Sequence record: PP886230 | Length of the DNA: 64,000 bases | Source: Escherichia phage vB_EcoM_E9.1 | Direction: 5' to 3' (one strand) | Part shown: positions 43,230 to 62,746 of the stretch, in pieces | Layout of the letters: each line of letters opens with the position of its first letter | Numbering within the stretch: the first letter of the stretch is position 1 | Translations under genes and position numbers: made by a program | The notes under the pieces: generated by a model | The model's input: only the letters and a program-made list of their open reading frames with translations | What the model was told of the DNA's origin: nothing | Databases searched by the model: none

Positions 43230-43230
43230 T

Positions 43231-44296: not shown

Positions 44297-44599
44297 GAGA
44301 GATGAGTTGCCGCAAACAATTCATTCACTCTACCTCCTGTCGTGAGACAGTACAGAAAGATAGTTCCTCCAATGGGTGGTACATCTTTTTGAACCTCATA
44401 TGAAAATTGTAATAACAGTACTGATATTAACAGAATGGTGTCAGTACTGATTTTAATCTAAAGCATTATGCCACCAGCACAAGCTGGTGGATTCCCTCTA
44501 ACAGTATTCAGTACTACATGATAGTCTTCATCCTCCTAGGGTAACATAGTGAGGGCTATGATGGCAGTACTGAATACTCCCTTTCAAAAGATAGATCTA

Positions 44600-44800
44600 T
44601 GGTATAGTACTGACGGATTTTGGGCGTAGTTACCCTGGATGGATTTTGGACGTAGATATGTCTAGCCCTCCAGAAGTCTGGAAGTAAAGATGGCTATCCA
44701 TCTAGACGGCTAAACGGCTAGATTTCTGGATGGCTAGACGTTTGGACGGCTAAACGGCTAGATGGGTACACGTCTGGAAGTATAGACGGCTAAATCAAAA
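44600..44800. repeat. iteron-like direct repeats
   Basis: gacggctaaacggctagat twice (~44705, ~44745), partial third copy, ctggaagta twice, attttggRcgta repeats. Confidence 0.55.
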
Positions 44801-45410
44801 TTTTATTTTGTTTTTCCAATAGTTCCCCTACCGCGTGGGGATAGTTTCCCCGCAGTATCTGAAGTTAGATTTTTCTGAATCTGGAATCATTATCTTATAA
44901 ACTGGGGGCAATGTCAACGGCCTGGCCGGATATTTTTAAAAATTTTTTCAGTACTGAATTTTGGGCGTAACTATGCACCCGATGGGCTTGAGTCTTTCTC
45001 GACTTGATGGAACTATTATACAGTACTGAAAAAATAAAGCAATACCCTGGAAGCAAAAAAGTTTTAATTAATTTGCTTGCTATCCTGGGCCGGACTATGG
45101 TACTATATTTCAGTACTGAGAAAGTGCGTTTACCTGCTAGGGTGCGGGAGTCTATCCTTTTTTTATATCTTGAATTTTGGACGGATCTTCCCACCCCCTG
45201 GGGTATCCGCTTTCTCGCGTCTATGTAGTAATTATACGCTTTTTCAGGATCAAGTCAATACCTAAAAACAAAATAATTGAAAATAATTTAACGCGTTTAA
45301 ACGGCCCGTAACGCCCTGGATTGTTGGGAGTGGTGCAAATGTATAGCTTAGGTGTATTAATGCGTTAGAATGCGTCTGAGGCCGTTTTATGGGGTGTAGT
45401 AGTGATTTGG

Positions 45411-45503
45411 TTGATTCAGTACTGAATAATAGTACTCCTATATAGAAAGATAGTTCCCCTGGATTGATTCAGTACTGAATAATAGTACTCCTATATAGAA
45501 AGA
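45411..45503. repeat. 40-bp perfect direct repeat x2
   Basis: ttgattcagtactgaataatagtactcctatatagaaaga at ~45411 and ~45464. Confidence 0.7.
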
Positions 45504-45534
45504 AAACTATTTTAAAAGTATTTGTAGAAAGTAC

Positions 45535-45593
45535 TTGCACCGTACTGATAAAAGCGTATAATGTTTTACATCGAGAGCGGGAACACTTCCCGC
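45535..45593 (+). promoter_or_regulatory. PeSL-like cassette: promoter plus 5' stem-loop
   Basis: TTGCAC - 16 nt - TATAAT gttttacatcgaga GCGGGAAcacTTCCCGC. Confidence 0.6.
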
Positions 45594-45617
45594 TACACTT
45601 TAAGAGAGATTAATACG

Positions 45618-45980
45618 ATGGCAACTCAAATCACCAAAATTATTGCTAACCTGGTTAACTTCCGCGACGAGATGAAAGATCTTCCGGCGGCGACGGTTAA
45701 AACTCACATTGACGCATACCGCGAACTGATTAAAATGCTGCCGCTTAAGCGTGAACAATACGCCGCTACCGTGATGCTTGATGCGATGATCCATAAGATG
45801 ATCGCCAGTGATTTGACGATGGTTTATCAGTATATGGGCGAAAATTTCGCGGTGTGTAGTAAGCCAGTACCAGGGATGGCAACAACTGAGGAATTGCACG
45901 GCTTAAACTTAAAACAAGATGCATGGGATAATATGCCTCGTTTCCTGGTATGGGCTGACAGTGGCAAAATTTACAAATAA
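45618..45980 (+). CDS. hypothetical protein (120 aa), GC-richer codon usage
   Basis: ATG after RBS taagagag; track ORF start is an ATG inside the -10 hexamer. Confidence 0.6.
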   Translation: MATQITKIIANLVNFRDEMKDLPAATVKTHIDAYRELIKMLPLKREQYAATVMLDAMIHKMIASDLTMVYQYMGENFAVCSKPVPGMATTEELHGLNLKQDAWDNMPRFLVWADSGKIYK

Positions 45981-45994
45981 GTTTAATAAAGTAC

Positions 45995-46053
45995 TTGCAA
46001 ACTATGTTTAATGGCGTATAATGTTTTACATCAGGTGGGGAATAGTTCCCCAC
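45995..46053 (+). promoter_or_regulatory. PeSL-like cassette
   Basis: TTGCAA .. TATAAT .. GTGGGGAAtagTTCCCCAC. Confidence 0.6.
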
Positions 46054-46075
46054 TATATAAGAGGATTAAAAAAAA

Positions 46076-46315
46076 ATGGCTAAATCAAAAATGTTCTTAG
46101 GTCACAAAAACAAAACTCATTGGAATGTAAGCCTGTGGATTAATAACGATGAGGGATTGTATCGGTTGGCCCTGGACTTTATTGCCGCCAATACTAATCG
46201 CAATGATGCGGCCCGTCATATGATGTTATTTTTAGAACAGACTGGACAAGATAAAACACCGGACGGATTCAAATATAGCACTACTGCGATCCGTGCGGCG
46301 ATGGTTGGAATGTAA
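46076..46315 (+). CDS. hypothetical protein (79 aa)
   Basis: promoter and 5' hairpin upstream; RBS gagga. Confidence 0.55.
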   Translation: MAKSKMFLGHKNKTHWNVSLWINNDEGLYRLALDFIAANTNRNDAARHMMLFLEQTGQDKTPDGFKYSTTAIRAAMVGM

Positions 46316-46403
46316 TAGAATAGAATTTATTTAAAGTACTATTGCACGGGGATAGTACTTTATAATAGTGTTTTATTCATACACCAACGATAAGGGCAAC
46401 AGC

Positions 46404-46670
46404 ATGAATATTAAGTATTTTGCGACGCGTGAACAAGCTCGGATCGCCGCTCGCCAGGACGGGGCAACGTTTAAAGATATGGGCGTACAATCGGAACGTG
46501 GTAAACGTTGGGCCATTGTAAAGCGTAGTACCGCCAGATCATTACAGTACTGGTTAGCGGCCTTAAAAAGTCCCGATAGTGTATCGCGTCGAGTGGTAGA
46601 AATAAAGCTCGACCGAAAGGGCAACCGCGTGACCGTGTACCGTACTAAAAAGATTGCAGTACTTGAATAA
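46404..46670 (+). CDS. hypothetical protein; paralog of 58621 ORF
   Basis: shared KYFATREQARIAAR..TFKDMG..DRKGNRVTVY motifs. Confidence 0.6.
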   Translation: MNIKYFATREQARIAARQDGATFKDMGVQSERGKRWAIVKRSTARSLQYWLAALKSPDSVSRRVVEIKLDRKGNRVTVYRTKKIAVLE

Positions 46671-46677
46671 AAAGTAC

Positions 46678-46736
46678 TTGCAAACTATGTTTAAAGGCGT
46701 ATAATGTTTTACATCGAGAGCGGGAACTCTTCCCGC
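46678..46736 (+). promoter_or_regulatory. PeSL-like cassette
   Basis: TTGCAA .. TATAAT .. GCGGGAActcTTCCCGC. Confidence 0.6.
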
Positions 46737-46757
46737 CTATAACCTGGAGTAATAAAA

Positions 46758-46988
46758 ATGACTAATATGTATATGACTGAAGTTAAAACCGTAAAAGATA
46801 CTACCACGAATAAAACTACTTACTTACAGCGGATCTGTGGTGTATGGCAACGTATCAGCAAATCAAAGTACTTTAAATTAACATCATATGCAAACCGTTC
46901 TGATTCATTCAGTACTGAAATAAAAGGTAATAAAGTACACCAATACGGCACTTATTATTATTACAGCCTGGACGCGATTGCAGTATAA
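46758..46988 (+). CDS. hypothetical protein (76 aa)
   Basis: promoter-hairpin cassette upstream; RBS ggag. Confidence 0.55.
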   Translation: MTNMYMTEVKTVKDTTTNKTTYLQRICGVWQRISKSKYFKLTSYANRSDSFSTEIKGNKVHQYGTYYYYSLDAIAV

Positions 46989-47237
46989 GCAGTTTACAAA
47001 TCTTTACAATTGCCGGTATTGACTTATTTTGTCAGTACTGGCATAATGTATTCATTGGCAGATAAGCCGTAGCCCATAGGGTGCGGGAGTGTATCTATAG
47101 AAAAATTAGTTTAGTATAGTTACAATTGTGCACCCGGTGGGTTAGCTGTTGTCATGGGGTATATTATGCCAGTACTTGATAATGCTGTCAATACTTTTTT
47201 TTACTATCCAGTACAGAAAACTATTTTTAAAAAGTAC

Positions 47238-47384
47238 TTGCAAACTATGTTTAAAGGCGTATAATGTTTTACATCAGGACGGGGGAACGAAATAAGTAAC
47301 TTCCCGTTAAGTAGCCCAGGAGTAAGGCACACGAAAAACTCCCCTGATAAAATAGTTTGACAAATGTTTTTAAAAGCGTATAAT
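47238..47384 (+). promoter_or_regulatory. dual-promoter module with conserved inter-promoter element (copy 1)
   Basis: TTGCAA..TATAAT (47238-47265), ~73-nt element caggacggggg...cccctg, then TTGACA..TATAAT (47357-47384). Confidence 0.55.
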
Positions 47385-47416
47385 ACTTACATCAACTACT
47401 GAATGAGGGTTACAAA

Positions 47417-48028
47417 ATGAAAACTATCACTACTACTACTTTCGTTATGGATTTTTCTGAATTGAACGCAGAACAAAAAACGTCAGCTATCGAACTGGTT
47501 CGGGAACGTGAAAAAAACTCAAACGACAATTATTTTTCTGAAAGTGAAATTGAATACTATAAAGAAACAGTACTACCGGAATATGGCATTAATGACGCTG
47601 AAATACAATTCAGTGGCTTTTGGTCCCAGGGTGACGGTGCATCAATCAGTACTGACCACGTTGACGCAGTGAAGTTTTTACGCAAGGTAAGAGCATTAAC
47701 TAAGTATCGCTCAATCCGTCACTTGCTGAATGAAGATGATTTGGCGATGAGTGTAAAGCGTTCGCACTCCCACTACTCGCATGAGAATACTGTAAGCGGG
47801 TACATTGAATCGGCTTACACTGATTTAACCGCAAAACAAGAAACGTTAGTTAATGAGCTTGAGGAACTACTCACTGATACTATTCGTGAATTGTCCCGCA
47901 AGTTGTACCGTGATTTAGAGAATGCATATGAGGATCAATTCACTACTGAAAACATTACGGCACTGATTGAGGGTAACGAGTATCAATTCAATGTTATTGA
48001 TGGCGTAGTGGAATCAATCGAATATTAA
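47417..48028 (+). CDS. hypothetical protein (203 aa)
   Basis: downstream of dual-promoter module; RBS gaggg. Confidence 0.6.
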   Translation: MKTITTTTFVMDFSELNAEQKTSAIELVREREKNSNDNYFSESEIEYYKETVLPEYGINDAEIQFSGFWSQGDGASISTDHVDAVKFLRKVRALTKYRSIRHLLNEDDLAMSVKRSHSHYSHENTVSGYIESAYTDLTAKQETLVNELEELLTDTIRELSRKLYRDLENAYEDQFTTENITALIEGNEYQFNVIDGVVESIEY

Positions 48029-48040
48029 TTTAAAAAGTAC

Positions 48041-48099
48041 TTGCAAACTAAGTTTAAAAGCGTATAATACTTTATATCGAGAGCGGGAATAGTTCCCGC
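48041..48099 (+). promoter_or_regulatory. PeSL-like cassette
   Basis: TTGCAA .. TATAAT .. GCGGGAAtagTTCCCGC. Confidence 0.6.
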
Positions 48100-48120
48100 T
48101 ACTAATGAGGAATACTACAA

Positions 48121-48285
48121 ATGAATACTTTTACCTTCGCTCAATTGAACGCCCTGGATGTATTGTCTGATGCTTTGCGGGATGCAACTGAAAGCGGTTT
48201 ATTTGACAATGTTGACATTCACCCTGATGTAATTAATAATTTTTGTGATGCTATCGCAGAAGTACTGGAAGATCTAAAAAAATAA
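48121..48285 (+). CDS. hypothetical small protein (54 aa, not in track)
   Basis: ATG after promoter-hairpin cassette and RBS gagg. Confidence 0.5.
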   Translation: MNTFTFAQLNALDVLSDALRDATESGLFDNVDIHPDVINNFCDAIAEVLEDLKK

Positions 48286-48295
48286 TAGAAAGTAC

Positions 48296-48355
48296 TTGCA
48301 ATTAGTTTTTAGTACTGTATAATGTTTTACATAGAGGGGAGAAATGGTTCTCCCT
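48296..48355 (+). promoter_or_regulatory. PeSL-like cassette
   Basis: TTGCAA .. gtactgTATAAT .. GGGGAGAAatggTTCTCCC. Confidence 0.6.
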
Positions 48356-48373
48356 GGTAATGAGGAAAATACA

Positions 48374-48595
48374 ATGGCTAATATCACTACTCTTTCCCAA
48401 CTGGAAGCACTGGTTAAATCTATGCGGGAACATGCCGACAATATCGGCGTAAAAGATCCAGCCGTTTGCTTCTGCGACGAATTGAATGATGATACCCTGG
48501 TAATAGCAGAAGTCCAGGACGTTTCTAACTATTCCTCGCGTTACACTGGCGGCGTAGCAAATAAAGGTGACTTCTGTTTATACCTTACCAAATAA
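48374..48595 (+). CDS. hypothetical protein
   Basis: internal ATG (MANITTLSQ) after RBS; cassette upstream. Confidence 0.55.
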   Translation: MANITTLSQLEALVKSMREHADNIGVKDPAVCFCDELNDDTLVIAEVQDVSNYSSRYTGGVANKGDFCLYLTK

Positions 48596-48763
48596 CAACG
48601 CGGGGAGATAATAACTCCCCGTTACTTTTTCAGTACTGAATCATTTAATAGACGGATCTCGGCACCCGGTGGGTTAGTGACTGTTTCGTCTTGATGTAGT
48701 AATTATGCCAGTACTGGATGCACTTGTCAACAACTATTTTTCAAATACTTTTTATTAAAATAC

Positions 48764-48817
48764 TTGCTAATAGTTTTTAAACGCGTATAATGTTTTGCAT
48801 AGGGGGAGCGGTTCCCC
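48764..48817 (+). promoter_or_regulatory. PeSL-like cassette
   Basis: TTGCTA .. TATAAT .. GGGGAgcgGTTCCCC. Confidence 0.55.
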
Positions 48818-48838
48818 TGGTAACTAAGGAATAATAAA

Positions 48839-49075
48839 ATGCTTGAACAAATCAAATCAACGTCTGCGAATGTAACGGGAACGGTTGTACACTTTACTAG
48901 TGATGAATCGCGGGGCGTTCCCTATTGTGCTGTACATGTAAACACTGATGGCAACTACTGGTTTACGGTTTACGGATCATATTCATTTGGACGACCAGGG
49001 CATCAAAAAATTCTGGATAAAGTACAGCCAACGGGTAAAAATATCACGGCTGAAATGTTTTATAAAAAATCATAA
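48839..49075 (+). CDS. hypothetical protein (78 aa)
   Basis: cassette upstream; RBS aagga. Confidence 0.55.
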   Translation: MLEQIKSTSANVTGTVVHFTSDESRGVPYCAVHVNTDGNYWFTVYGSYSFGRPGHQKILDKVQPTGKNITAEMFYKKS

Positions 49076-49080
49076 AGTAC

Positions 49081-49140
49081 TTGATAATAGTTTTTAGTAC
49101 TGTATAATATTTTACATCGCAAGGGGGTAATGGTTCCCCC
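49081..49140 (+). promoter_or_regulatory. PeSL-like cassette
   Basis: TTGATA .. gtactgTATAAT .. GGGGGTAAtggTTCCCCC. Confidence 0.55.
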
Positions 49141-49160
49141 TGGTAACTAAGGATAATCAA

Positions 49161-49460
49161 ATGAAAGTTGCATTCATCGCCCTGGCTTTATCTGTTTCCT
49201 CTTTTGCTGTTAATGCGTCGTTAGATGTAAGTAGTGAAAAATTCATTCAGTGCACTGTAGCAATGACAGATGAAAGTACTGGCGAGATTGTATTAAAGGA
49301 TCTGGAGATTCAGCCGGAAGCATTTAAAAACGGCCCGTTCCATGAAGAAGACGAAAACGGTAGCACAACAATTTATTATGATGCCAGTACTAAACGCGGG
49401 TCGGTCACTGTTATGGATACTGAGAAAGTAACTCATACTGGCGTTATTAATTGCCGTTGA
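49161..49460 (+). CDS. secreted protein (signal peptide)
   Basis: N-terminus MKVAFIALALSVSSFAVNA. Confidence 0.6.
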   Translation: MKVAFIALALSVSSFAVNASLDVSSEKFIQCTVAMTDESTGEIVLKDLEIQPEAFKNGPFHEEDENGSTTIYYDASTKRGSVTVMDTEKVTHTGVINCR

Positions 49461-49481
49461 TAGATACTACGGGGTAACATC

Positions 49482-49712
49482 ATGACTAAGCGAATTGTTT
49501 TACTTAACGAAAGCAGTACTACACAACTACTTAACGCCGTGCATTATGATATTGAAACGAGCGTTAATCTTATCAGTACTGTAGTACTGTTGGACACTGG
49601 AAAGGTCGCCAATGATAAAGCGATTGCAGGTATACTAACGGATCTTGAGCCTGGTAGCAGTGCACCAATAACGTTAAATGGTAAAGTGTTTAATATTTTA
49701 CTCACTGATTAA
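49482..49712 (+). CDS. hypothetical protein (76 aa)
   Basis: ORF followed by intrinsic terminator. Confidence 0.55.
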   Translation: MTKRIVLLNESSTTQLLNAVHYDIETSVNLISTVVLLDTGKVANDKAIAGILTDLEPGSSAPITLNGKVFNILLTD

Positions 49713-49718
49713 GTACAT

Positions 49719-49742
49719 AGCCCACCTGGTGGGCTTTTTTGT
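49719..49742 (+). terminator. intrinsic terminator
   Basis: agcccacctggtgggct + T-run. Confidence 0.7.
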
Positions 49743-49943
49743 TTTTGTAGTATCGTAGTACTGAGATACTTTGAAAATAGTTTTAAAAAAGTAGTTGACA
49801 TTACCGCAGAAAAGCGTAGAATGTATTACATCAAGACGGGGAGCACTAAGTAGACCGCCAGTAAGTCGAACGAAAAACTGGACACGTCGAGAAAACTTTG
49901 ATACACTAATAAACGTAAACTAAACTTTAATTGAGGATTTATA

Positions 49944-50426
49944 ATGGCTAATGTAAAATCATTCATCAAAGCACTGGTAGCAAATGAAACTAACGTCGCG
50001 GCTGAGATCCTGGCTGAACTGGATAACGATACCATGAAAGCGGTACGCAATAATTTTAACATCGCGTACAGTACTGCGAAAGAACTACAAGCAAATAAAG
50101 CGGCAGAAATTGAAGCGGCAAAGGCGGCCCGTGAAGCAGAACTACAAGCAACAATCGAAAGTATCCAGGCGGCGGTGTCTGGATTGGATCTGGAAGTGGT
50201 TGTGGAAATGGCACATAAAGCCCTGGCGGTTAAGTATGGTGAAGATAAGCCAGAATCTAAACCCAAAAAATGGATTCAGGAACGCGTAGCGGTAGTACTG
50301 GACAACGGGGAAGAATATCTGATTCCGGTGCGTGGTAACTGTATTGCGGTAGTACTGGACGCTATCAAAGAAAGCGGTATGACTCGCGAGGAATGGATCG
50401 AAGCTCATCGCAAAGTTGAAGCATAA
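49944..50426 (+). CDS. hypothetical protein (160 aa), Ala/Glu-rich helical
   Basis: long 5' leader after promoter at ~49795; RBS gagga; terminator downstream. Confidence 0.6.
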   Translation: MANVKSFIKALVANETNVAAEILAELDNDTMKAVRNNFNIAYSTAKELQANKAAEIEAAKAAREAELQATIESIQAAVSGLDLEVVVEMAHKALAVKYGEDKPESKPKKWIQERVAVVLDNGEEYLIPVRGNCIAVVLDAIKESGMTREEWIEAHRKVEA

Positions 50427-50447
50427 CAATTAAAGTACTGAATCACT

Positions 50448-50473
50448 AGCCCACTGTATAAGTGGGCTTTTTT
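50448..50473 (+). terminator. intrinsic terminator
   Basis: agcccactgtataagtgggct + tttttt. Confidence 0.7.
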
Positions 50474-50637
50474 GTGTTTATCGTTTACCAGGCCACCAGC
50501 ACCGCCTAGAAACGATTCTAACGCATTAAACGGATTATCTGATGCATTGCCCTAGCTGGTGGCGTTAAGGCTGTAAGAACGCGATTGAGAGCGTTTAAAG
50601 TATTTTGCAAAAAGTAATAAAAAGTACTTGAACGATT

Positions 50638-50687
50638 AAGAGATTAGCGTATAATGTTTTACATCGAGAGGGGGAAACGGTTCTCCT
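50638..50687 (+). promoter_or_regulatory. PeSL-like cassette
   Basis: TTGAAC .. TATAAT .. GAGGGGGAAacggTTCTCC. Confidence 0.55.
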
Positions 50688-50710
50688 TCCAAATCAAAGG
50701 AATCAAAACA

Positions 50711-50938
50711 ATGGCTATTATCATTACTCGCGTATCTGGTACTACTGGCAACGAACAAGTAGTTGCAGTCATTACGAACAAGGCAGGTGCGGAATTGCAA
50801 AATGCAATGAATACCTGGGCCGTTAATGAGTTCGGTCAGTGGGCAAGTGTAGCATACATTGAAACCTATCAAGTGCCGTCGATTAGTTTAACTGATTTGG
50901 GCGTTGAGCGTATCCTTTGCCTTGATGAATTAAATTAA
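50711..50938 (+). CDS. hypothetical protein
   Basis: internal ATG (MAIIITRV) after RBS aagga. Confidence 0.55.
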   Translation: MAIIITRVSGTTGNEQVVAVITNKAGAELQNAMNTWAVNEFGQWASVAYIETYQVPSISLTDLGVERILCLDELN

Positions 50939-50946
50939 AAAAGTAC

Positions 50947-51006
50947 TTGCAAAGTAAATCGAATAAAGTATAATACATTACATCAAGGGGAGAAATGGTT
51001 CTCCCC
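50947..51006 (+). promoter_or_regulatory. PeSL-like cassette
   Basis: TTGCAA .. TATAAT .. GGGGAGAAatggTTCTCCCC. Confidence 0.6.
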
Positions 51007-51023
51007 ACTACAAGGAAACTAAA

Positions 51024-51236: not shown

Positions 51237-51317
51237 AAATATTATCACAGTACTATTGACATAGTTTGATAGTACTGGCATAATAACTTTTATCAAGACA
51301 ACTAAGAGGAAATTAAA

Positions 51318-55914: not shown

Positions 55915-55992
55915 TACTTGCATTTAGTTTTCAGTACTGTTATAGTACTTGCATCAAGGGGAAACATCTTCCCCTACTAAGAGGAAATAAAA

Positions 55993-56181
55993 ATGGAAAA
56001 CTTATCAAGTATTTTAGTACAAGATGATTTCGGTAATCCTGGAAGTGCTATCATTGTTCGGGGTAATAAAGCAACGTTTGTTATTGCTGGTGGACCAGTA
56101 CAGCGTAGCATTAAAAATAATGCTGTTACCATTAATAATGTACGCTATCGCTTAGATAAAGAATTGATTCATAAACTGTAA
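55993..56181 (+). CDS. hypothetical protein (62 aa)
   Basis: cassette upstream; RBS agagga. Confidence 0.55.
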   Translation: MENLSSILVQDDFGNPGSAIIVRGNKATFVIAGGPVQRSIKNNAVTINNVRYRLDKELIHKL

Positions 56182-56208
56182 TATTAATTTAATAGAGGAT
56201 AACAATAA

Positions 56209-56532
56209 ATGTACATTCATACTACTATCACAAAGGAAGTCCGTTGCCAGTTCGAAAGTATTCCGGGCGTATGTTTCATCACTGGTACGTTTTCCCCTGG
56301 TGATCGTGATAATCCAGTACTGTTACAATTACGCCATCCATCATGGGATAAAGCATTTGATCTACCGTTGAATGAATTCGCAACTACTGCTGAAAAGTAC
56401 ATTAAAAATATTCGCGAGAATGATCGACTATTCATTAATGCTTTTAGTGATTCCGCGTTAAGCGAGATCCACGGCGTATTGGTTGCAATCATGGAATCAA
56501 TGCAGAAAACTAAATTCAAACAAGGTGAATAA
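56209..56532 (+). CDS. hypothetical protein (107 aa)
   Basis: RBS gagga. Confidence 0.55.
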   Translation: MYIHTTITKEVRCQFESIPGVCFITGTFSPGDRDNPVLLQLRHPSWDKAFDLPLNEFATTAEKYIKNIRENDRLFINAFSDSALSEIHGVLVAIMESMQKTKFKQGE

Positions 56533-56538
56533 AAACTA

Positions 56539-56598
56539 TTGACAATGCAACCCAGTACTGTATAATAGTTTACATGAAGGGGAGAAATGATTCTCCCC
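56539..56598 (+). promoter_or_regulatory. PeSL-like cassette
   Basis: TTGACA .. gtactgTATAAT .. GGGGAGAAatgaTTCTCCCC. Confidence 0.6.
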
Positions 56599-56615
56599 AC
56601 TGAGAGGAAAGAAAA

Positions 56616-56828
56616 ATGCAAGGTCAACTAATCGTTCGTAAATGGTCTGATACTAACGAAAAACCGTGGGATGTACAATACATCGGACCGGATGGGGTAT
56701 CACGTTATCAGCCTGGCGTAACGCATAGTACTGAGCAATATGCCGCCGCTCACCGCGAACGCCTGTTAGAATCCATGAAACAGGGATTCTGTGAAAAATT
56801 CATTCAAGATCATTGGCTGAAAGATTAA
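56616..56828 (+). CDS. hypothetical protein (70 aa)
   Basis: cassette upstream; RBS gagagga. Confidence 0.55.
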   Translation: MQGQLIVRKWSDTNEKPWDVQYIGPDGVSRYQPGVTHSTEQYAAAHRERLLESMKQGFCEKFIQDHWLKD

Positions 56829-56845
56829 TAGAAGGAGTACAGCTT

Positions 56846-56938
56846 ATGCAAATGAATCCGATGATTATTGTTTTAGCTGTACTTATGATCATTCATGCAA
56901 TTGTAGAAGTATTAACGCAATCAGGAGTAATAAAATGA
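56846..56938 (+). CDS. small hydrophobic peptide (30 aa)
   Basis: RBS aggag; single TM-like helix; not in track. Confidence 0.4.
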   Translation: MQMNPMIIVLAVLMIIHAIVEVLTQSGVIK

Positions 56939-57108
56939 TTCAAGTAGAATTATCAGTACTGAAAGATCTGTTTTATCGGTTAGGTACTACTGGAGAGTAT
57001 CCTAAAAGTGATACCGCAAAACTTTTTGTATCACTCGACTTATGGCAACGCGAACAATTAGTAATGTCCTGGCGTAAAGGTAAAGCAGATCGCGAGGTGA
57101 AAGCATGA
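56935..57108 (+). CDS. hypothetical small protein (57 aa)
   Basis: ATGA overlap; not in track. Confidence 0.4.
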   Translation: MIQVELSVLKDLFYRLGTTGEYPKSDTAKLFVSLDLWQREQLVMSWRKGKADREVKA

Positions 57109-57254
57109 AAGAATTCTTATTCGAAGTAGTGTTTCAAGGTGTCGGTAGTAACCAACTGATTCGCTCAAGTGGTTACAATGTTAACCAGGCATGGAATAAC
57201 ATTAAACAAATGTACCCGAACGCTATCACCTATCGCAACCCGAAAGAAGTTTAA
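57105..57254 (+). CDS. hypothetical small protein (49 aa)
   Basis: ATGA overlap; not in track. Confidence 0.4.
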   Translation: MKEFLFEVVFQGVGSNQLIRSSGYNVNQAWNNIKQMYPNAITYRNPKEV

Positions 57255-57267
57255 AAATATTTGAAAA

Positions 57268-57303
57268 AGGGATTGACTCCGGTCAGTCCCTTTGCTATTA
57301 TAT
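57268..57303 (+). terminator. terminator/promoter hybrid element (second-half variant)
   Basis: GGGATTGACtccgGTCAGTCCCttt GC TATTAT. Confidence 0.55.
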
Positions 57304-57391
57304 ACGCATAGAAACAATTCAGCCCACCGGGTGCATAAATGTATCTATTATATGCTGGTGGCTAGTACTGAAAACTATTTTTAAAAAGTAC

Positions 57392-57535
57392 TTGCATTGT
57401 ATTTAGAATCAAGTATAATGTTTTACATCAGGACGGGGAACGAAACAAGTAACCCCGTTAAGTAGTCCAGGAGTAAGACATACGAAAACCTCCCCTGATA
57501 AAATAGTTTGACAATAGAAATTAAACGAGTATAAT
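57392..57535 (+). promoter_or_regulatory. dual-promoter module with conserved inter-promoter element (copy 2)
   Basis: TTGCAT..TATAAT, element caggacgggg...cccctg (~57429-57496), TTGACA..TATAAT. Confidence 0.55.
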
Positions 57536-57567
57536 ACTTACATCAACCACTGATAAGGAAACATAAA

Positions 57568-57843
57568 ATGCGGATTCTACTGACAGCTAACGAAATCGAA
57601 CAAGTACTGACTACTAACCTGGAAGACTGGAAACGTGAAGCAGATATCCAGGCGGTTCAATGGTTAAATGATAAGTTAACGCCGGATGACTTAAGCAAGA
57701 TTGTAGATCCTCAATTCTACGAAGATATCCACGACACCGCGTTAAGCGTCGAGGATGTACTAGATAAGCACTTTATTGATACTGATTTGCAGGTTTACGG
57801 TCGTAAAAACTTTATCACTATTCACGACATTTACAATAATTAA
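57568..57843 (+). CDS. hypothetical protein (91 aa)
   Basis: downstream of dual-promoter module; RBS aagga. Confidence 0.55.
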   Translation: MRILLTANEIEQVLTTNLEDWKREADIQAVQWLNDKLTPDDLSKIVDPQFYEDIHDTALSVEDVLDKHFIDTDLQVYGRKNFITIHDIYNN

Positions 57844-57846
57844 GTA

Positions 57847-57908
57847 TTGACAAAGTATCTTAGTACTGTATAATAGTTTACATCAAGCGAGGGGAATGGT
57901 TCCCCTCC
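57847..57908 (+). promoter_or_regulatory. PeSL-like cassette
   Basis: TTGACA .. gtactgTATAAT .. GAGGGGAAtggTTCCCCTC. Confidence 0.6.
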
Positions 57909-57930
57909 TAACTAAAAGAGAGAAATAAAA

Positions 57931-58113
57931 ATGGCTAAGTGCACTATCTGCAAGAAAGAAATAGTATTAGTTCCAAGTGCCCGTGAACGTGCCGCTCGGT
58001 TCGGTGGCAAAGCGTCAGACTATACAAAAATGTTTACTACCCATACAGCTTGCCAGGTAGCAAAACGTTCACAAGAAAGCGTAGAATTAATGCGTAAACT
58101 TTCCAAAAAATAA
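57931..58113 (+). CDS. small basic Cys-containing protein (60 aa)
   Basis: CTICKKE....HTACQ; cassette upstream. Confidence 0.55.
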   Translation: MAKCTICKKEIVLVPSARERAARFGGKASDYTKMFTTHTACQVAKRSQESVELMRKLSKK

Positions 58114-58116
58114 GTA

Positions 58117-58179
58117 TTGACAAAGTATCTTAGTACTGTATAATAGTTTACATCAAGTGAGGGGAAACGGTTCCCCTCC
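58117..58179 (+). promoter_or_regulatory. PeSL-like cassette
   Basis: TTGACA .. gtactgTATAAT .. GAGGGGAAacggTTCCCCTC. Confidence 0.6.
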
Positions 58180-58201
58180 TAACAAAGAGAGAGAAATAAA
58201 A

Positions 58202-58525
58202 ATGGCTATGATCCTTGCCCAGAAAGTAGAATTGAAAATTGTAACCTCCTTTGACATTAACGTTAATCGGTGGACTGATTCACACGGCAATACTTACCAC
58301 TCTTGCTACGTGTCTGCGTTAATTGGCGACCGCTGGGAAGACCTGGGACACGAAACCTTTACATACGGTTACGGTACACAAGGCGAATACACGGGCTTGG
58401 AGATCATTAAAGAAACCGTTATAGGTTTCAACCCGAAAGAAAAAGTTATTCACCGCATCGAGGAAGAGATCAACAAAGAAATAACAGTTCGCTACCACGA
58501 TGTAAAACGTAAGAAAGACATGTAA
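58202..58525 (+). CDS. hypothetical protein; paralog of 51318 ORF
   Basis: internal ATG (MAMILAQ); shared motifs with 51318. Confidence 0.55.
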   Translation: MAMILAQKVELKIVTSFDINVNRWTDSHGNTYHSCYVSALIGDRWEDLGHETFTYGYGTQGEYTGLEIIKETVIGFNPKEKVIHRIEEEINKEITVRYHDVKRKKDM

Positions 58526-58620
58526 TAGAATCCATTTAAAGTACTATTTGACATTGCCCAGATAGTACTTTATAATAGACTCTAACTTGTAGTACTAACT
58601 TAACTAATAGGATGTATACC

Positions 58621-59016
58621 ATGATTACTAAATTCTACGCTACCCGTGAAGCTGCCCGTATTGTTGCACGCGAGGAAGGCGAAACATTTAAAGACATGGG
58701 CAAAGATGCACCGAAAGGTCAACGCTGGGCCGTACAGTTCAAAGAGATCTCTGATATTGTGAATTCACCGGAGCCAGTACTAACAGCAGCAGAACTAAAA
58801 CGAGCGGATTTACTGGCGTCAATACTTGATGCACAAGATGAGTTTATCGCTGATTCTGATATCAAAGTACAGACAAACCACACCGCTTGGACTCACGCGG
58901 ATCACCTGGCAAACCTTAAGCGTCCAAGTGAACTGATTCGCAACCAGAAAGAGATCCGACACGACCGTAAGGGTAATCGTGTAACAGTATACAGTAAACG
59001 CCGCCAGGTTATCTAA
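58621..59016 (+). CDS. hypothetical protein; paralog of 46404 ORF
   Basis: KFYATREAARIVAR..TFKDMG..DRKGNRVTVY; terminator downstream. Confidence 0.6.
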   Translation: MITKFYATREAARIVAREEGETFKDMGKDAPKGQRWAVQFKEISDIVNSPEPVLTAAELKRADLLASILDAQDEFIADSDIKVQTNHTAWTHADHLANLKRPSELIRNQKEIRHDRKGNRVTVYSKRRQVI

Positions 59017-59039
59017 TAACTTGCAGTACTAACAACACG

Positions 59040-59065
59040 GCGGGATCAGTTCCCGCCTTTTTTAT
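59040..59065 (+). terminator. intrinsic terminator
   Basis: ggcgggatcagttcccgcc + tttttt. Confidence 0.7.
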
Positions 59066-59077
59066 AGGACAAACAAA

Positions 59078-59332
59078 ATGATTAAGGTTCAACTATATAA
59101 AGATAACATCTTACGGGTACACTATAAAGCACCTCAGAGAATCATCACAAAGGCCGTACAGCTTGCTAATGAGTTTATTAATGGTAACCTATTACCAAGG
59201 AAGTTAAGCAACGGGAAACTGCGTGTAATCGATGTGGACACTAACAACAGAATAGTAATAGAGAACACAGGAAAAATAAACCTATATGAACACCAACAAT
59301 ATAATAAGAAAATAAAACTAATATCACGTTGA
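59078..59332 (+). CDS. hypothetical protein (84 aa)
   Basis: ORF after terminator. Confidence 0.5.
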   Translation: MIKVQLYKDNILRVHYKAPQRIITKAVQLANEFINGNLLPRKLSNGKLRVIDVDTNNRIVIENTGKINLYEHQQYNKKIKLISR

Positions 59333-59385
59333 CAGTACTCAAATGTTTTAGTACTATATGTACATACCAACACGGGGGAAACAAA

Positions 59386-59628
59386 ATGATTACTTTAGAA
59401 AAACGTATCAAAGAAACTACATCGCTGGTGGAACTGTTAACAGTACTCAAATGTAAAACAACACCATTCAGCACGCCGGACTTTATTAATATGGTTGATG
59501 TTAATGGTCGCTATCGTATCACGGTCGAACAAGGAGCGGCGAAAGTATTCAGTACTAAAAACACGAAGGAAGTGATCCACGCCGTTAATGTTAAAAAAGT
59601 AGTTGCCATTGATAGTAAAGTACTGTAA
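59386..59628 (+). CDS. hypothetical protein
   Basis: internal ATG (MITLEKRIKE) after RBS. Confidence 0.5.
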   Translation: MITLEKRIKETTSLVELLTVLKCKTTPFSTPDFINMVDVNGRYRITVEQGAAKVFSTKNTKEVIHAVNVKKVVAIDSKVL

Positions 59629-59659
59629 GATAGTTACATTAACTCAAGGAGAACATGCA

Positions 59660-60244
59660 ATGCGTAATTATACTAAATTCATCCGTACACTGTCAGAAAT
59701 GGAAACCAACAAAGAGATCCTTTCAGCTTGTCGGTTAGCTGGCCTGGAGATCATCGGTGCTGGTTCTTCCCGTATAGTATTCGCTTTAAATGATCGGTTA
59801 GTGATTAAGGTCGCGAATTGTGATGCGGGTGTAGAACAAAATGAAACTGAATGTAAGGTATGGAATTTTTTAGACTATGACCGCCCTCAGTTGAAACAGT
59901 ACTTTGCAAAGGTGCATATGCATTTATGCGATCCTGATAATATGTTTATCGTTATGGATCGGTTGAGTACTGCAAGCAAAGGCAGCGTAAAGCACGTTAA
60001 CGCGTGCAACGAATTAAAGTATAATATTAAACGTAATGCCATTGAACGCCAGCACCGCTTTGCTGATGCACTACAACACGTTGATGATACATTATCAACA
60101 CTAACGATAAGAGATATCAGAAAACAGAATATCGGCCAGGATCGTAATGGACTTATTAAAGTACTTGATTACGGTTTAACCCGCAATATCTGGAATCAGT
60201 ACTATAAAAAGCGTGATGTAGAAGCAAGTAAGGTAACACGATAA
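59660..60244 (+). CDS. mini protein-kinase-like protein
   Basis: IGAGSSRIVF (Gly loop), VIKVA (Lys), RDIRKQN (catalytic loop D-x4-N), VLDYG (DFG-like); internal ATG with RBS aaggag. Confidence 0.6.
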   Translation: MRNYTKFIRTLSEMETNKEILSACRLAGLEIIGAGSSRIVFALNDRLVIKVANCDAGVEQNETECKVWNFLDYDRPQLKQYFAKVHMHLCDPDNMFIVMDRLSTASKGSVKHVNACNELKYNIKRNAIERQHRFADALQHVDDTLSTLTIRDIRKQNIGQDRNGLIKVLDYGLTRNIWNQYYKKRDVEASKVTR

Positions 60245-60258
60245 AAAAAGATTAAAAA

Positions 60259-60295
60259 AGGGATTGACTCCGGTCAGTCCCTTTGCTATTATATA
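60259..60295 (+). terminator. terminator/promoter hybrid element (second-half variant)
   Basis: same as 57268 copy. Confidence 0.55.
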
Positions 60296-60385
60296 TTCAT
60301 TGAGAGATAACTCACTGACCCATAGGGTGCGGAAGTGTATCTATTATATAAGTATTCAGTACTGAAAACTATTTTTAAAAAGTAC

Positions 60386-60446
60386 TTGCATTGTACTTAG
60401 AATCAAGTATAATGTTTTATATCGAGAGGGGAAATGGTTCTCCCTC
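60386..60446 (+). promoter_or_regulatory. PeSL-like cassette
   Basis: TTGCAT .. TATAAT .. GAGAGGGGAAatggTTCTCCCTC. Confidence 0.6.
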
Positions 60447-60466
60447 AAAGAACAAGGAATAAAATC

Positions 60467-60688
60467 ATGACTACAATGACTTGCATTCACGCTTCAAACC
60501 TGCTTAATGATGCGGCCTTTAATGTTGAAACAGAATATCAATGTTATCGGGATGAAAATAAAAAAGTTTTTGTAGTTGATAATAATGGTTTCCATATTGA
60601 ATTGCAATCCGGCTTCACTGGCGTTGATGGTAAATCAGTATGGGGCGTACAGGATGATAAAGGCACATATCATTTTAAACGTAATTAA
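60467..60688 (+). CDS. hypothetical protein
   Basis: internal ATG (MTTMTCIH) after RBS aagga. Confidence 0.5.
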   Translation: MTTMTCIHASNLLNDAAFNVETEYQCYRDENKKVFVVDNNGFHIELQSGFTGVDGKSVWGVQDDKGTYHFKRN

Positions 60689-60691
60689 GTA

Positions 60692-60750
60692 TTGACAAAG
60701 TATATCAGTACTGTATAATAGTTTACATCAAGGGGAGAATAGTTCTCCCC
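60692..60750 (+). promoter_or_regulatory. PeSL-like cassette
   Basis: TTGACA .. gtactgTATAAT .. GGGGAGAAtagTTCTCCCC. Confidence 0.6.
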
Positions 60751-60774
60751 ACACCAATAAAAGGAAACATAATT

Positions 60775-61047
60775 ATGTCTAGCTACTCCGCTACTATGAT
60801 CATTAAAGATATGAACGGTAATCCTACTTCTGCTGGTGGATCATTTGGAAACATTAATTTAGATGGTCGGTTATCCATGCAATCAGCAATCGATGCAGCG
60901 AAAGAAGTTTTTAAGAATGAATGTACTGTTAGTAAGCTGGATTATATGGGATTTGCTATCGAAAAAACTAATCGTTTTGTGGACTACAAAAAACCACTGA
61001 TGATTGATACTAACCTGAAAGCAAACGAAGTGGAGTACTTATTATGA
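60775..61047 (+). CDS. hypothetical protein (90 aa)
   Basis: cassette upstream; RBS aagga. Confidence 0.55.
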   Translation: MSSYSATMIIKDMNGNPTSAGGSFGNINLDGRLSMQSAIDAAKEVFKNECTVSKLDYMGFAIEKTNRFVDYKKPLMIDTNLKANEVEYLL

Positions 61048-61235
61048 CAGTTGAAGAAGTAAAAAAAGTACTGGCAGTACTACGCTATCATAATCATTGT
61101 AAGGTGAAGAATGATCCTGATTATCTTGATTCATCCCTGGAAGAGGATACACTACAAGCAATAAGCCATATGCAAAAAATGCTTAAGCGTATGACCGAAA
61201 AGAACAGGCCAGACTATATCGGAAATAAAATTTAA
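61044..61235 (+). CDS. hypothetical protein (63 aa)
   Basis: ATGA overlap. Confidence 0.5.
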   Translation: MTVEEVKKVLAVLRYHNHCKVKNDPDYLDSSLEEDTLQAISHMQKMLKRMTEKNRPDYIGNKI

Positions 61236-61242
61236 AAAGTAC

Positions 61243-61303
61243 TTGCATTGTAGTTAGATTAACGTATAATGTTTTACATAGAGCGGGGGAATAGTTCTCC
61301 CGC
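61243..61303 (+). promoter_or_regulatory. PeSL-like cassette
   Basis: TTGCAT .. TATAAT .. GCGGGGGAAtagTTCTCCCGC. Confidence 0.6.
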
Positions 61304-61321
61304 CAGTCCAGGAGATACACC

Positions 61322-61585
61322 ATGAACACTATCGAAATCACTATCAATGCACACGTATACGACAACGTAGTACTGCAAACTACTATGACCGCTAATGATA
61401 CCAGTACTTTGCGGAATACTGTTATTAGTGCCGTATGTGCCGCTATCGGTGATGTCGCCCTGGAAAATGCAAAACACGTAAACGATGGTTTCACTATGTG
61501 CAAACGTGATAACGCAAAACATATCATCGTGGAAGGTTACGGCGGTGTAGAATTTAATGTTTATATGAAAAAAGTACTTGCATAA
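61322..61585 (+). CDS. hypothetical protein (87 aa)
   Basis: cassette upstream; RBS aggag. Confidence 0.55.
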   Translation: MNTIEITINAHVYDNVVLQTTMTANDTSTLRNTVISAVCAAIGDVALENAKHVNDGFTMCKRDNAKHIIVEGYGGVEFNVYMKKVLA

Positions 61586-61634
61586 TAACTAAAACAAAGT
61601 ATAATGTTTTGCATAGGGGGAGATATCCTCCCCC
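61578..61634 (+). promoter_or_regulatory. PeSL-like cassette
   Basis: TTGCAT .. TATAAT .. GGGGGAGatatCCTCCCCC. Confidence 0.55.
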
Positions 61635-61652
61635 ACTAAAAGGAGTACTAAA

Positions 61653-61877
61653 ATGGCTAACTTTGATGAACTGATGCGGGAAGTAGCTAACCTGGCAGAA
61701 GAGAAGAAATCATTCGATTCTATCTATAACACCGCTCATCGTGATTCAGTACTGGCATGTAACCAGGATCAAAAAGATGAACTAATCGCCACCTATCATG
61801 AAGCATGGAAGTACTACCGACAATGGGAGAAAGAAGAAAGCGAGTCTACCATCAACGGCATCAATAATCTAATCTAA
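61653..61877 (+). CDS. hypothetical protein (74 aa)
   Basis: cassette upstream; RBS aaggag. Confidence 0.55.
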   Translation: MANFDELMREVANLAEEKKSFDSIYNTAHRDSVLACNQDQKDELIATYHEAWKYYRQWEKEESESTINGINNLI

Positions 61878-61953
61878 AAGTTTTATTTCAGTACTATTGA
61901 CATAGCTTGATAGTACTGATGTAATAACTTTACTAACTACAAGGGGAAACATA

Positions 61954-62211
61954 ATGGAACAGTTCACACAATATCGGGTAAATCCTCAAGCTATGGCCTA
62001 CGTAGAAGACCATAAAACGTTACCAGTACTGCAACCAGTTAAAGGCCATATCTATCGTGCAATGTCGTGGTGTGCGGCCCAGGATGGCTATAAAACCGTA
62101 GCCGTGGGTATGTACTGCGGTAATGGTGAATGGTTTGATCCAAATAATCCGGTAGCCATTGACAGTACTGAAAAAATGAAATGGGCCGACTACATCGAAG
62201 ATATTTCATAA
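61954..62211 (+). CDS. hypothetical protein (85 aa)
   Basis: promoter TTGACA..CTGATGTAAT upstream. Confidence 0.5.
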   Translation: MEQFTQYRVNPQAMAYVEDHKTLPVLQPVKGHIYRAMSWCAAQDGYKTVAVGMYCGNGEWFDPNNPVAIDSTEKMKWADYIEDIS

Positions 62212-62218
62212 AAACTAT

Positions 62219-62279
62219 TTGACAGTACTAACCAGTAATGTATAATGTTTTACATAGAGCGGGGGAATAGTTCTCCCGC
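62219..62279 (+). promoter_or_regulatory. PeSL-like cassette
   Basis: TTGACA .. TATAAT .. GCGGGGGAAtagTTCTCCCGC. Confidence 0.6.
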
Positions 62280-62301
62280 CAATAGTTTGGAGTTAAACAT
62301 T

Positions 62302-62502
62302 ATGTCTATCGCTATCTCCCTGGTTGAAGTACTGAAAGAAGCTAAAGCCAACCAGATCGACGTAAAGATCCAGGAACTACAAAACGGCTTAATCGGCTGT
62401 ACTTGTACCGCTGGTGGAGCGGCAGACTATCGAGAACACGAATCACTCGAATCACTGGTTCGGTATCTTTCCATGATCGTTGATGATTGGAGAATCATCT
62501 AA
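62302..62502 (+). CDS. hypothetical protein
   Basis: internal ATG (MSIAISLVEV) after RBS ggag. Confidence 0.5.
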   Translation: MSIAISLVEVLKEAKANQIDVKIQELQNGLIGCTCTAGGAADYREHESLESLVRYLSMIVDDWRII

Positions 62503-62518
62503 CAAAAAAGAATAAAAA

Positions 62519-62555
62519 AGGGATTGACTCCGGTCAGTCCCTTTGCTATTATATA
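62519..62555 (+). terminator. terminator/promoter hybrid element (second-half variant)
   Basis: same as 57268 copy. Confidence 0.55.
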
Positions 62556-62746
62556 CGCATAGACAAAAACTAGCCCACAGGGTGCATAGGTGTATCCAAA
62601 ATATATAGTTAATAACGGTGAGTAACTATCTGCTGGTGGAACTAAAACTATTAATAAAAAAGTATTGACAAAGTATATCAGTACTGCGATAATGTATCTC
62701 GTAGGGCGGCAATGGTGCGACGGCCCACAAAGTTAGGAGATTCAAA

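Follow-up and report, generated by a model that had tools for sequence, protein, structure and literature searches.

The 64,000-nucleotide stretch of Escherichia phage vB_EcoM_E9.1 analysed here (sequence record PP886230; hereafter the window) carries a cluster of the octamer GCTGGTGG, the Chi sequence of enteric bacteria, near one of its ends. Our analysis suggests that these octamers are probably true Chi sites of the enterobacterial host that selection maintains in the 20-kb direct terminal repeat (DTR) of a linear jumbo phage genome, where they would convert RecBCD for recombination between the repeats. As judged from sequence comparison the finding holds, departs strongly from chance and is very probably functional.

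Chi sites in the right terminal repeat

An exact search of the window found 16 copies of GCTGGTGG on both strands, against 0.58 expected from dinucleotide-preserving shuffles, and that count was reached in none of 100 shuffles. A previous sequence-only reading of the window had named seven copies and estimated that well under one should occur by chance; its positions are correct, each within 1 base. It had also described all the copies as intergenic, which holds for the seven that it named, both in the map of open reading frames (ORFs) of the window and in the orthologous annotation of phage fEgEco12, but not for the cluster, where four further plus-strand copies lie inside small ORFs (Table 1). 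The cluster, spanning 44,471-62,639, thus holds 11 of the 16 copies; seven of these are non-coding and the four coding copies are read in two different frames. The five copies outside the cluster are all coding and were set aside as background. Three of them (29533, 29791 and 30046) fall within one glycine-rich ORF (GGTGGTGGTGCTGGTGG..., 29475-30230, 251 amino acids) and are a coding by-product.

Table 1. The right terminal repeat and the copies of GCTGGTGG in the window (relatives, seven other Asteriusvirus repeats; last column, copies named in the sequence-only reading)
Feature	Position	Strand	Context	Intact in relatives	Named before
Right DTR, 20,107 bp	43894..64000	.	alignment to fEgEco12 DTR 1-20,993
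Back-to-back Chi pair CCACCAGC-ACAA-GCTGGTGG	44471..44490	.	1.7-kb non-coding leader, 578 bp from left DTR boundary; minus copy at 44471, plus copy at 44483		yes (both)
Chi	50493..50500	-	25 nt past terminator hairpin; active only for RecBCD arriving from left		yes
Chi, intergenic	50555..50562	+		7/7	yes
Chi, intergenic	54624..54631	+	part of 3' arm of terminator-like hairpin AGCCCAC..GTGGGCT	7/7	yes
Chi in ORF 55993-56181	56086..56093	+	Ala-Gly-Gly frame	7/7	no
Chi, intergenic	57354..57361	+	~30 nt upstream of -35 hexamer	7/7	yes
Chi in small ORF (ATG 59386)	59424..59431	+	Ser-Leu-Val-Glu frame; slurp01 annotation	7/7	no
Chi in ORF 60775-61047	60832..60839	+	Ala-Gly-Gly frame	7/7	no
Chi in ORF 62245-62502	62410..62417	+	Ala-Gly-Gly frame	lost in 121Q only	no
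Chi, intergenic	62632..62639	+	25 nt upstream of TTGACA -35 hexamer	7/7	yes
Chi outside cluster	15015	+			no
Chi outside cluster	29533, 29791, 30046, 38502	-			no

The window is 96-99% identical to the E. coli Asteriusvirus (121Q/PBECO4-like) jumbo phages. The linear genome of fEgEco12 has 374,733 bp and direct terminal repeats of 20,993 bp, and its ends have been verified with PhageTerm and with restriction digests (PMC13070987); both repeat copies are identical in its record. In the alignment, position 20,993 of fEgEco12 corresponds to position 64,000 of the window, so that the final base of the repeat falls on the final base of the window. Since those ends were mapped experimentally, the alignment indicates that the window forms the right-hand end of the linear phage genome, with 64000 as the physical right terminus and 43,894-64,000 as the right DTR. 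All 11 clustered copies lie inside this repeat and the cluster is coextensive with it, at a density (11 in 20.1 kb, or 1 per 1.8 kb) above the 1 per 4.6 kb of the host chromosome. The DTR is a dense array of sigma-70-type early promoters, twelve of which match the consensus at 12 of 12 positions, and of small rightward ORFs; between 44 and 64 kb there are about 25 repeats of one cassette, in each of which a strong sigma-70 promoter comes with a 5' hairpin, a ribosome-binding site and a small rightward ORF. The initial 1.7 kb of the repeat (43894-45560) is non-coding and is without annotation in every relative examined; this leader holds a perfect sigma-70 promoter (44259-44286) in addition to the palindromic Chi pair.

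The enrichment is specific to the exact octamer. On the plus strand of 43,601-64,000 there are nine copies against 0.32 expected under an order-3 Markov model of the local strand, and the expectation ranges only from 0.17 to 0.32 over orders 1 to 4. The 24 one-mismatch neighbours of GCTGGTGG, when pooled, occur three times against about 6.4 expected, which is no enrichment. When all 65,536 octamers were ranked by their joint over-representation in the DTRs of three genera, GCTGGTGG came second, and every other word in the top eight overlaps the AGTACT/-35 promoter motif.

The enrichment is also local. For slurp01, the closest relative, the complete genome (348,043 bp) was assembled; it contains 26 copies, 10 of them in the ~20-kb equivalent of the DTR. 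The other 16 are distributed over 328 kb, with nine on the plus strand (4.7 expected) and seven on the minus strand (3.2-4.6 expected), that is, about 1.5-2 times the expectation. Genome-wide enrichment, which the sequence-only reading had made its own test, was therefore not found, the excess being confined to the DTR; this locality supports a function at the DNA ends and is not a refutation. The same reading had warned that some copies sit in repeated cassettes and are not independent. The warning concerns 57354 and 62632 only, and it does not hold for them, because these copies occupy different places in their paralogous cassettes and unrelated bases stand there in the Chi-less paralogues, which makes them independent acquisitions. 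At 57354, for example, the octamer takes the place of a 9-nt cassette spacer that reads TAATGTT-TG or TAAGTAT-TC in paralogues without Chi.

Conservation, orientation and host range

Conservation was evaluated by comparing the DTR of the window with seven other Asteriusvirus DTRs (89-96% identity), using all other octamers of the DTR as background. The nine plus-strand copies are intact in 61 of the 63 comparisons, where 43.6 were expected (P = 2e-8, a value that ignores shared ancestry among the genomes), and in 34 of 36 against 22.6 expected in the four of these genomes that are more diverged. The two minus-strand copies are intact in 7-8 of 14 comparisons against 9.7 expected; the range arises from the terminal minus copy of UE-S1, which is present but was misaligned at its flipped loop. 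Plus-strand copies remain steady at 8-10 per DTR in the eight Asteriusviruses despite gains and losses, as in 121Q, which is without the copy at 62410 and gained another plus-strand copy elsewhere in the DTR; minus-strand copies number 0-2. These comparisons indicate that the plus-strand copies are under purifying selection and that the minus-strand copies are not. The polarity of the counts was dropped as evidence of selection, since the ratio of 35 plus to 7 minus copies over four genera equals the expectation from strand composition (about 82% plus). In this sense, the evidence for polarity is the asymmetry of conservation and not the counts.

RecBCD reads Chi when it arrives from the 3' side of the octamer, on the strand whose 3' end lies at the point of entry (PMC12315714). 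By this rule the plus-strand copies would be active for RecBCD entering at the right terminus, and 9 of the 11 copies in the DTR face this mapped end. The first that the enzyme would encounter from there is the copy at 62632, at 1,361 bp from the end, and the nearest correctly oriented Chi lies 375-1,429 bp from the right terminus in the other genera. The key variable is the orientation relative to the physical DNA end.

The individual sites illustrate the difference between strands. In the back-to-back pair at 44471-44490 the minus copy is directed towards the left terminus, the plus copy towards the right one. The pair is also found in fEgEco12, vB_Ec-M-J, slurp01, 121Q and UE-S1, and its 4-nt loop reads ACAA in the window and vB_Ec-M-J and TTGT in fEgEco12, slurp01 and 121Q; this inversion between close strains is a sign of hairpin- or cruciform-mediated flipping. 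A counterpart, CCACCAGC-TTAA-GCTGGTGG, is present 484 bp from the left end of fENko-Kae01, with unrelated flanks. The pair is gone in A4, and CMSTMSU is without the minus arm and retains the plus arm. The minus-strand copy at 50493 decayed to CCACTAGC or CCGTCAGC in slurp01, 121Q, UE-S1 and A4 and shows no detectable constraint. Its neighbour on the plus strand, at 50555, is invariant in the six relatives whose sequence was displayed, while its flanks and inverted partner vary. Pairing is therefore not what is conserved, given that the 50493 arm decays in four genomes while the 50555 copy does not change, and that CMSTMSU lost the minus arm only. Hairpin pairing was rejected as the reason for conservation also because a partner is present for only three of the nine plus-strand copies. 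A scan of IMG/VR for the palindrome CCACCAGC-N4-GCTGGTGG returned 46 contigs, mostly of high G+C content and attributable to chance, of which only 121Q is related to the window.

The same pattern occurs in the DTRs of four genera of phages on Enterobacterales hosts, represented by E. coli, Klebsiella and Pectobacterium phages (Table 2). With the four genera pooled, the DTRs contain 42 copies in 82.3 kb and the neighbouring DNA 10 in 132 kb, and Chi density across the DTRs compared is 1 per 1.8-2.5 kb. The positive genera infect E. coli, Klebsiella, Pectobacterium and Cronobacter. The average nucleotide identity between fENko-Kae01 and fEgEco12 is only ~29%, and CBB and GAP32, which are 70-90% identical, have 7 + 2 copies each, only about six of them orthologous. 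The 20-mer CCACTGGTTAACGCTGGTGG at the 54624 site is also found in fENko-Kae01, at 19354.

Table 2. Copies of GCTGGTGG in terminal repeats and adjacent unique DNA (plus/minus strand; plus-strand expectation of the window from an order-3 Markov model)
Phage (host)	DTR (bp)	Copies in DTR	Expected in DTR	Adjacent unique DNA
Window (E. coli)	20,107	+9/-2	0.33/0.11	+1/-4 in 43.9 kb
fEgEco12 (E. coli)	20,993	+10/-2	0.41/0.11	0/0 in 9 kb
vB_Ec-M-J (E. coli)	21,525	+9/-2	0.35/0.09	0/0 in 28 kb
fENko-Kae01 (Klebsiella aerogenes)	19,736	+12/-2	0.59/0.06	+1/-1 in 30 kb
Muenster (K. pneumoniae, Rak2 genus)	20,030	+7/-1	0.45/0.07	0/0 in 30 kb
CBB (Pectobacterium)	22,456	+7/-2	0.37/0.15	+2/-1 in 27.5 kb
PA5oct (Pseudomonas)	39,080	0/0	0.21/0.14	0/0 in 10.9 kb

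The Pseudomonas phage PA5oct is a member of the same clade, and its DTR, of 39 kb, consists of genes transcribed early, according to RNA sequencing (PMC7318152). There is no GCTGGTGG on either strand of this repeat. As PA5oct shares both clade and architecture, the octamer is not a motif of the clade and follows enterobacterial hosts. This result also answers whether the host uses this Chi, on which the sequence-only reading had made its proposal depend: the host is E. coli, GCTGGTGG is the Chi of enteric bacteria, and the relative from Pseudomonas is without it.

Proposed action on RecBCD and its alternatives

The E. coli host, the excess of the exact octamer, its recurrence in four genera, the negative result in Pseudomonas and the purifying selection together support the view that Chi acts here through RecBCD. 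The first reading had proposed that Chi might protect replication or recombination intermediates or stimulate recombination at the repeated cassettes. Its core, host Chi sites that matter through RecBCD, is supported by the comparative evidence; recombination at the small promoter cassettes is not, since the relevant repeat is the 20-kb DTR.

With a DTR at both ends, plus-strand Chi would act only on RecBCD that is loaded at the right terminus and moves leftward, against early transcription. The enzyme would meet up to nine Chi, 3' side first, and would cease to degrade the 3'-ended strand; once modified, it would load RecA on a 3' tail that is still inside the repeat. The homologous partner of the RecA-coated tail would be the left repeat copy of the same or of a sister genome, and strand invasion could circularise the genome, form concatemers or prime recombination-dependent replication. 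Conversion inside the repeat would at the same time spare the rest of the genome from RecBCD. We infer in this scheme that RecBCD is the reader of the octamer, that the right end is the exposed one, and that the benefit is repeat-by-repeat recombination beyond protection alone. The sites occupy sequence-neutral places (intergenic spacers, a terminator arm, two reading frames and, in fENko-Kae01, promoter spacers). A more demanding version is that host RecBCD-RecA is a required helper in the Rak2-like enterobacterial jumbo phages, that the Chi array shows which end is exposed to RecBCD, namely the right terminus, either because it enters first or because terminase frees it, and that the injected linear genome of 350 kb can become a replicating circle or concatemer only after Chi has triggered invasion of the other repeat, as an obligatory first step. 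We advance this version tentatively, as possible but somewhat doubtful.

Two alternatives keep the Chi-RecBCD interaction and change its benefit. Protection alone, in which Chi limits the degradation of the injected genome and the RecBCD-dependent capture of spacers by CRISPR systems with no recombination between repeats, seems unlikely to us. It would fit the finding that all enterobacterial members examined have a correctly oriented Chi 0.4-1.4 kb from the right terminus, and the content of the DTR, whose early genes (as seen by RNA sequencing in PA5oct) are the first that need to survive. Levy and colleagues reportedly found in 2015 that in E. coli Chi restricts the RecBCD-dependent acquisition of spacers. 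However, protection does not predict the sharp fall in Chi past the inner boundary of the DTR (none in the next 28-30 kb of vB_Ec-M-J and Muenster), as more Chi farther in would protect the remaining genome equally. A Chi-made 3' tail is useful only with a second homologous copy, so that the drop at this boundary is expected if the repeats recombine and favours recombination over protection alone. Moreover, Chi-modified RecBCD loads RecA anyway, which makes protection hard to separate from recombination. The other variant places the same mechanism late in infection, where Chi would protect or recombine right-hand concatemer ends produced by terminase cutting or rolling-circle replication, and not injected ends. 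In lambda and in LLS-type phages orientation is set by packaging, with terminase occluding the left end and RecBCD entering at the right (PMC12315714), and the DTR phages have the same polarity, their plus-strand copies facing the right end. Host RecBCD may nevertheless be inactive late in jumbo-phage infection, and a late role is compatible with repeat recombination and not exclusive of it; as the sole explanation we regard it as rather unlikely, though a little less so than protection alone. Both are variants of one Chi-RecBCD interaction.

Two further explanations dispense with RecBCD. The octamer could be a site for another phage or host factor, acting in transcription, packaging or as a nucleoid protein, its match to Chi being coincidental. 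The regular placement of some copies, just upstream of the -10 element in promoter spacers of fENko-Kae01 and 25-30 nt upstream of -35 hexamers in the window, points in that direction, and the DTR is full of further shared motifs such as AGTACT. Yet it is the exact host Chi that recurs in four genera, with no one-mismatch neighbour enriched, and PA5oct shares the architecture but not the octamer. Spacing to promoters, terminators and ORFs is not fixed, and ORF copies stand in two frames. As regards a promoter element, sites in the window range from ORF interiors to terminator arms to 25-60 nt upstream of -35 hexamers, placement in promoter spacers (several copies lie between -35 and -10 in fENko-Kae01) being limited to some copies of fENko-Kae01 and CBB. 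The strand asymmetry of conservation fits instead an end-directed translocase, and we find another factor very improbable. It is scarcely credible that the cluster is a by-product of base composition, Ala-Gly-Gly coding, cassette duplication or the arms of terminator or RNA hairpins. In its favour, the Ala-Gly-Gly frame is used by three of the four coding copies, and the three copies outside the DTR in the glycine-rich ORF 29475-30230 are a by-product of this kind; two pairs are inverted repeats, and one copy is in a terminator arm. But 7 of the 11 copies are non-coding, nine copies stand against a Markov expectation of 0.17-0.32, flanks are unrelated, paralogous cassettes are without the octamer, there is no Rfam match, and partner arms decay while the plus-strand Chi persists. 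The Markov, paralogue, octamer-ranking, PA5oct and conservation results contradict both of these explanations.

Several observations weigh against repeat recombination through RecBCD. The P value for conservation takes no account of shared ancestry, and the 35:7 ratio carries by itself no evidence of polarity. One end is unexplained, since the left terminus has one or two correctly oriented copies, which are unconserved; this end is either not exposed or guarded by something else. The prediction that a change of host would bring a change of Chi came out only in its negative half, the lack of enteric Chi: the PA5oct DTR is not enriched in the Pseudomonas Chi GCTGGCGC (none on the plus strand, one on the minus strand), so that the strategy does not extend to the whole clade. 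In slurp01 and Sharanji the annotation lists recombinase A, a RecD-like helicase and exonucleases (annotations only), and own recombination genes are unfavourable here because Chi-rich lambdoid phages are typically without a recombination module. A PHROGs scan of 40 DTR ORFs, which covered these ORFs only and leaves an inhibitor of RecBCD or an end-capping protein possible elsewhere, found no Gam, Abc2, gp5.9 or end-protector family, nearly all matches being of unknown function. Finally, a search of the available literature returned no paper that links Chi to jumbo, Rak2-like or DTR phages, or these phages to RecBCD.

Neighbouring features, known systems and implications

Other motifs were observed in the window. 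The palindrome AGTACT occurs 291 times in the 64 kb (e.g. at 44416-44449), at 6.6 per kb in the DTR and 3.3 per kb in 1-24 kb, and the DTRs of fENko-Kae01 and CBB are enriched in it too. The most over-represented octamer of the window is CAGTACTG (63 copies against 8.4 expected), which overlaps many -35 hexamers at their upstream edge (AAAGTACTTGCA) and is found in many promoter spacers (AGTACTGTATAAT). Two copies of TTCAGTACTGAT (43811-43820 and 43873-43882) are found within ~85 bp to the left of the DTR start. A composite motif of Chi and a downstream CAGTACTG was not adopted, because AGTACT is too dense in the DTR. A fused terminator-promoter module is present at 53228-53263, 57266-57301, 60257-60292 and 62517-62552; it consists of a hairpin with a 12-bp stem, AAAGGGATTGACTCCGGTCAGTCCCTTT, whose 5' arm includes a TTGACT -35 hexamer, and of a TATTAT -10 hexamer that follows 17 nt after the hairpin, so that terminator folding and promoter use would compete. 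Six copies of an intergenic motif of ~37 nt, TAGCCCA(C/T)AGGGTGC...GTGTATCTAT, are located at 47070, 53287, 54964, 57320, 60316 and 62571; its core words CCCATAGG, CCCACAGG and AGGGTGC are jointly over-represented in the DTRs of fENko-Kae01 and CBB as well, and a search of the whole window against Rfam gave no match. At about 25 sites in 45.5-63.2 kb (e.g. 48326-48350 and 52806-52830) a GC-rich leader hairpin, GGGGAGAAATGGTTCTCCCC or GCGGGAATAGTTCCCGC, lies a few bases past the predicted start and is followed by a ribosome-binding site, an arrangement shared by nearly all early promoters; these hairpins may be 5' stabilising stem-loops.

To the left of the repeat, 38829-43620 contains 22 tightly packed small plus-strand ORFs, all but one of 59-81 amino acids, with paralogue clusters of 10 and 6; the GC skew of their coding strand is -0.18, opposite to that of the plus-strand genes of the adjoining DTR. 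This array separates the DTR from a tandem array on the minus strand (27014-38725) of about ten paralogous genes of 370-430 amino acids, annotated in relatives as RCC1-like 'DNA condensation' proteins, which ends a few kb before the right DTR and includes the shorter glycine-rich ORF 29475-30230. In 1-24000 a hairpin with a TTCG tetraloop, GGTTGACTTCGGTCAGCC, has 7-8 copies, and the words GGTCAGCC and GACTTCGG are 45-130-fold over expectation; these hairpins are probably a terminator family related to the module of the DTR.

Chi arrays near DNA ends have been described in other phages. P1 and its relatives P7 and D6 have ~50 Chi, concentrated in or near the terminal redundancy, and RecBCD/RecA-dependent cyclisation of the injected DNA was proposed (Subramaniam & Smith, bioRxiv 10.1101/2021.07.08.451572). 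As in P1, host Chi in the DTR phages is denser than in the E. coli chromosome and located at virion DNA ends or repeats, and recombination of terminal repeats is proposed. P1 differs in being temperate, with 95 kb, pac-initiated headful packaging, ends and redundancy spread over 20-40 kb and abundant Chi on both strands, whereas the DTR phages are virulent jumbo phages of ~350-375 kb with fixed ends, an exact 20-kb repeat of early genes, a cluster that ends at the repeat boundary and one conserved orientation. LLS-type lambdoid phages have no recombination module, carry 8-25 Chi near and oriented for the open right end, and their growth is stimulated by RecBCD (Genome Res 2025, PMC12315714). 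They share with the DTR phages the terminal clustering, the bias of orientation to RecBCD entry at the right end, the spread across Enterobacterales hosts and a similar density (1 per 1.86 kb in LLS, 1 per 1.8-2.5 kb in DTRs). They differ in having cohesive ends, no long repeat and no own recombinase, while the DTR phages are annotated with a RecA-like recombinase, a RecD-like helicase and exonucleases; a dependence on RecBCD has been demonstrated in LLS and is putative in the DTR phages.

The E. coli chromosome has the same octamer and the same reader, and orientation matters there too, its 1,008 Chi (1 per 4.6 kb) being co-oriented with replication. However, the excess in E. coli is largely tied to codon usage (CTG) at 51% G+C, while the phage DNA has 39% G+C, mostly non-coding sites and a density over twice that of the chromosome. 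Phage T5 (AY543070.1) is, like the phage of the window, a virulent coliphage with a long fixed DTR of (pre-)early genes. Its 10.2-kb DTR contains two plus-strand Chi (0.16 expected), at 8127 and 8689, which in the right copy of the repeat stand 1.5 and 2.1 kb away from the right end; the 101 kb of its unique DNA contains four. T5 differs in that its left end is known to enter first, yet its DTR is without a copy oriented for that end. T5 gives a weak hint only, as selection cannot be established from such small numbers.

Little is understood of the way in which giant linear phage genomes escape host exonucleases and start to replicate. The authors of the fEgEco12 study supposed circularisation through the repeats (PMC13070987), and an array of Chi that is conserved, restricted to the repeat, host-specific and polar gives this supposition a concrete and testable mechanism, and predicts which DNA end is exposed. 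The principle was already published for P1 and lambda-like phages, and is extended here to virulent jumbo phages with their own recombinase. The array also provides a clue to the termini of jumbo-phage genomes that were deposited as arbitrary circles. The records of slurp01, 121Q, A4 and CMSTMSU are circular or arbitrarily opened, with one repeat copy each, and the Chi cluster together with an unannotated gap of 1.7-2 kb marks the expected physical termini, e.g. at ~76,527 in slurp01. With regard to phage therapy, the recBC or recA status of the host could affect susceptibility. If host RecBCD-RecA is indeed a required helper, the Chi array would be a read-out, from sequence only, of the polarity of genome entry and packaging, and a whole group of therapeutic jumbo phages would depend on recBC/recA as host factors despite their own recombinase.

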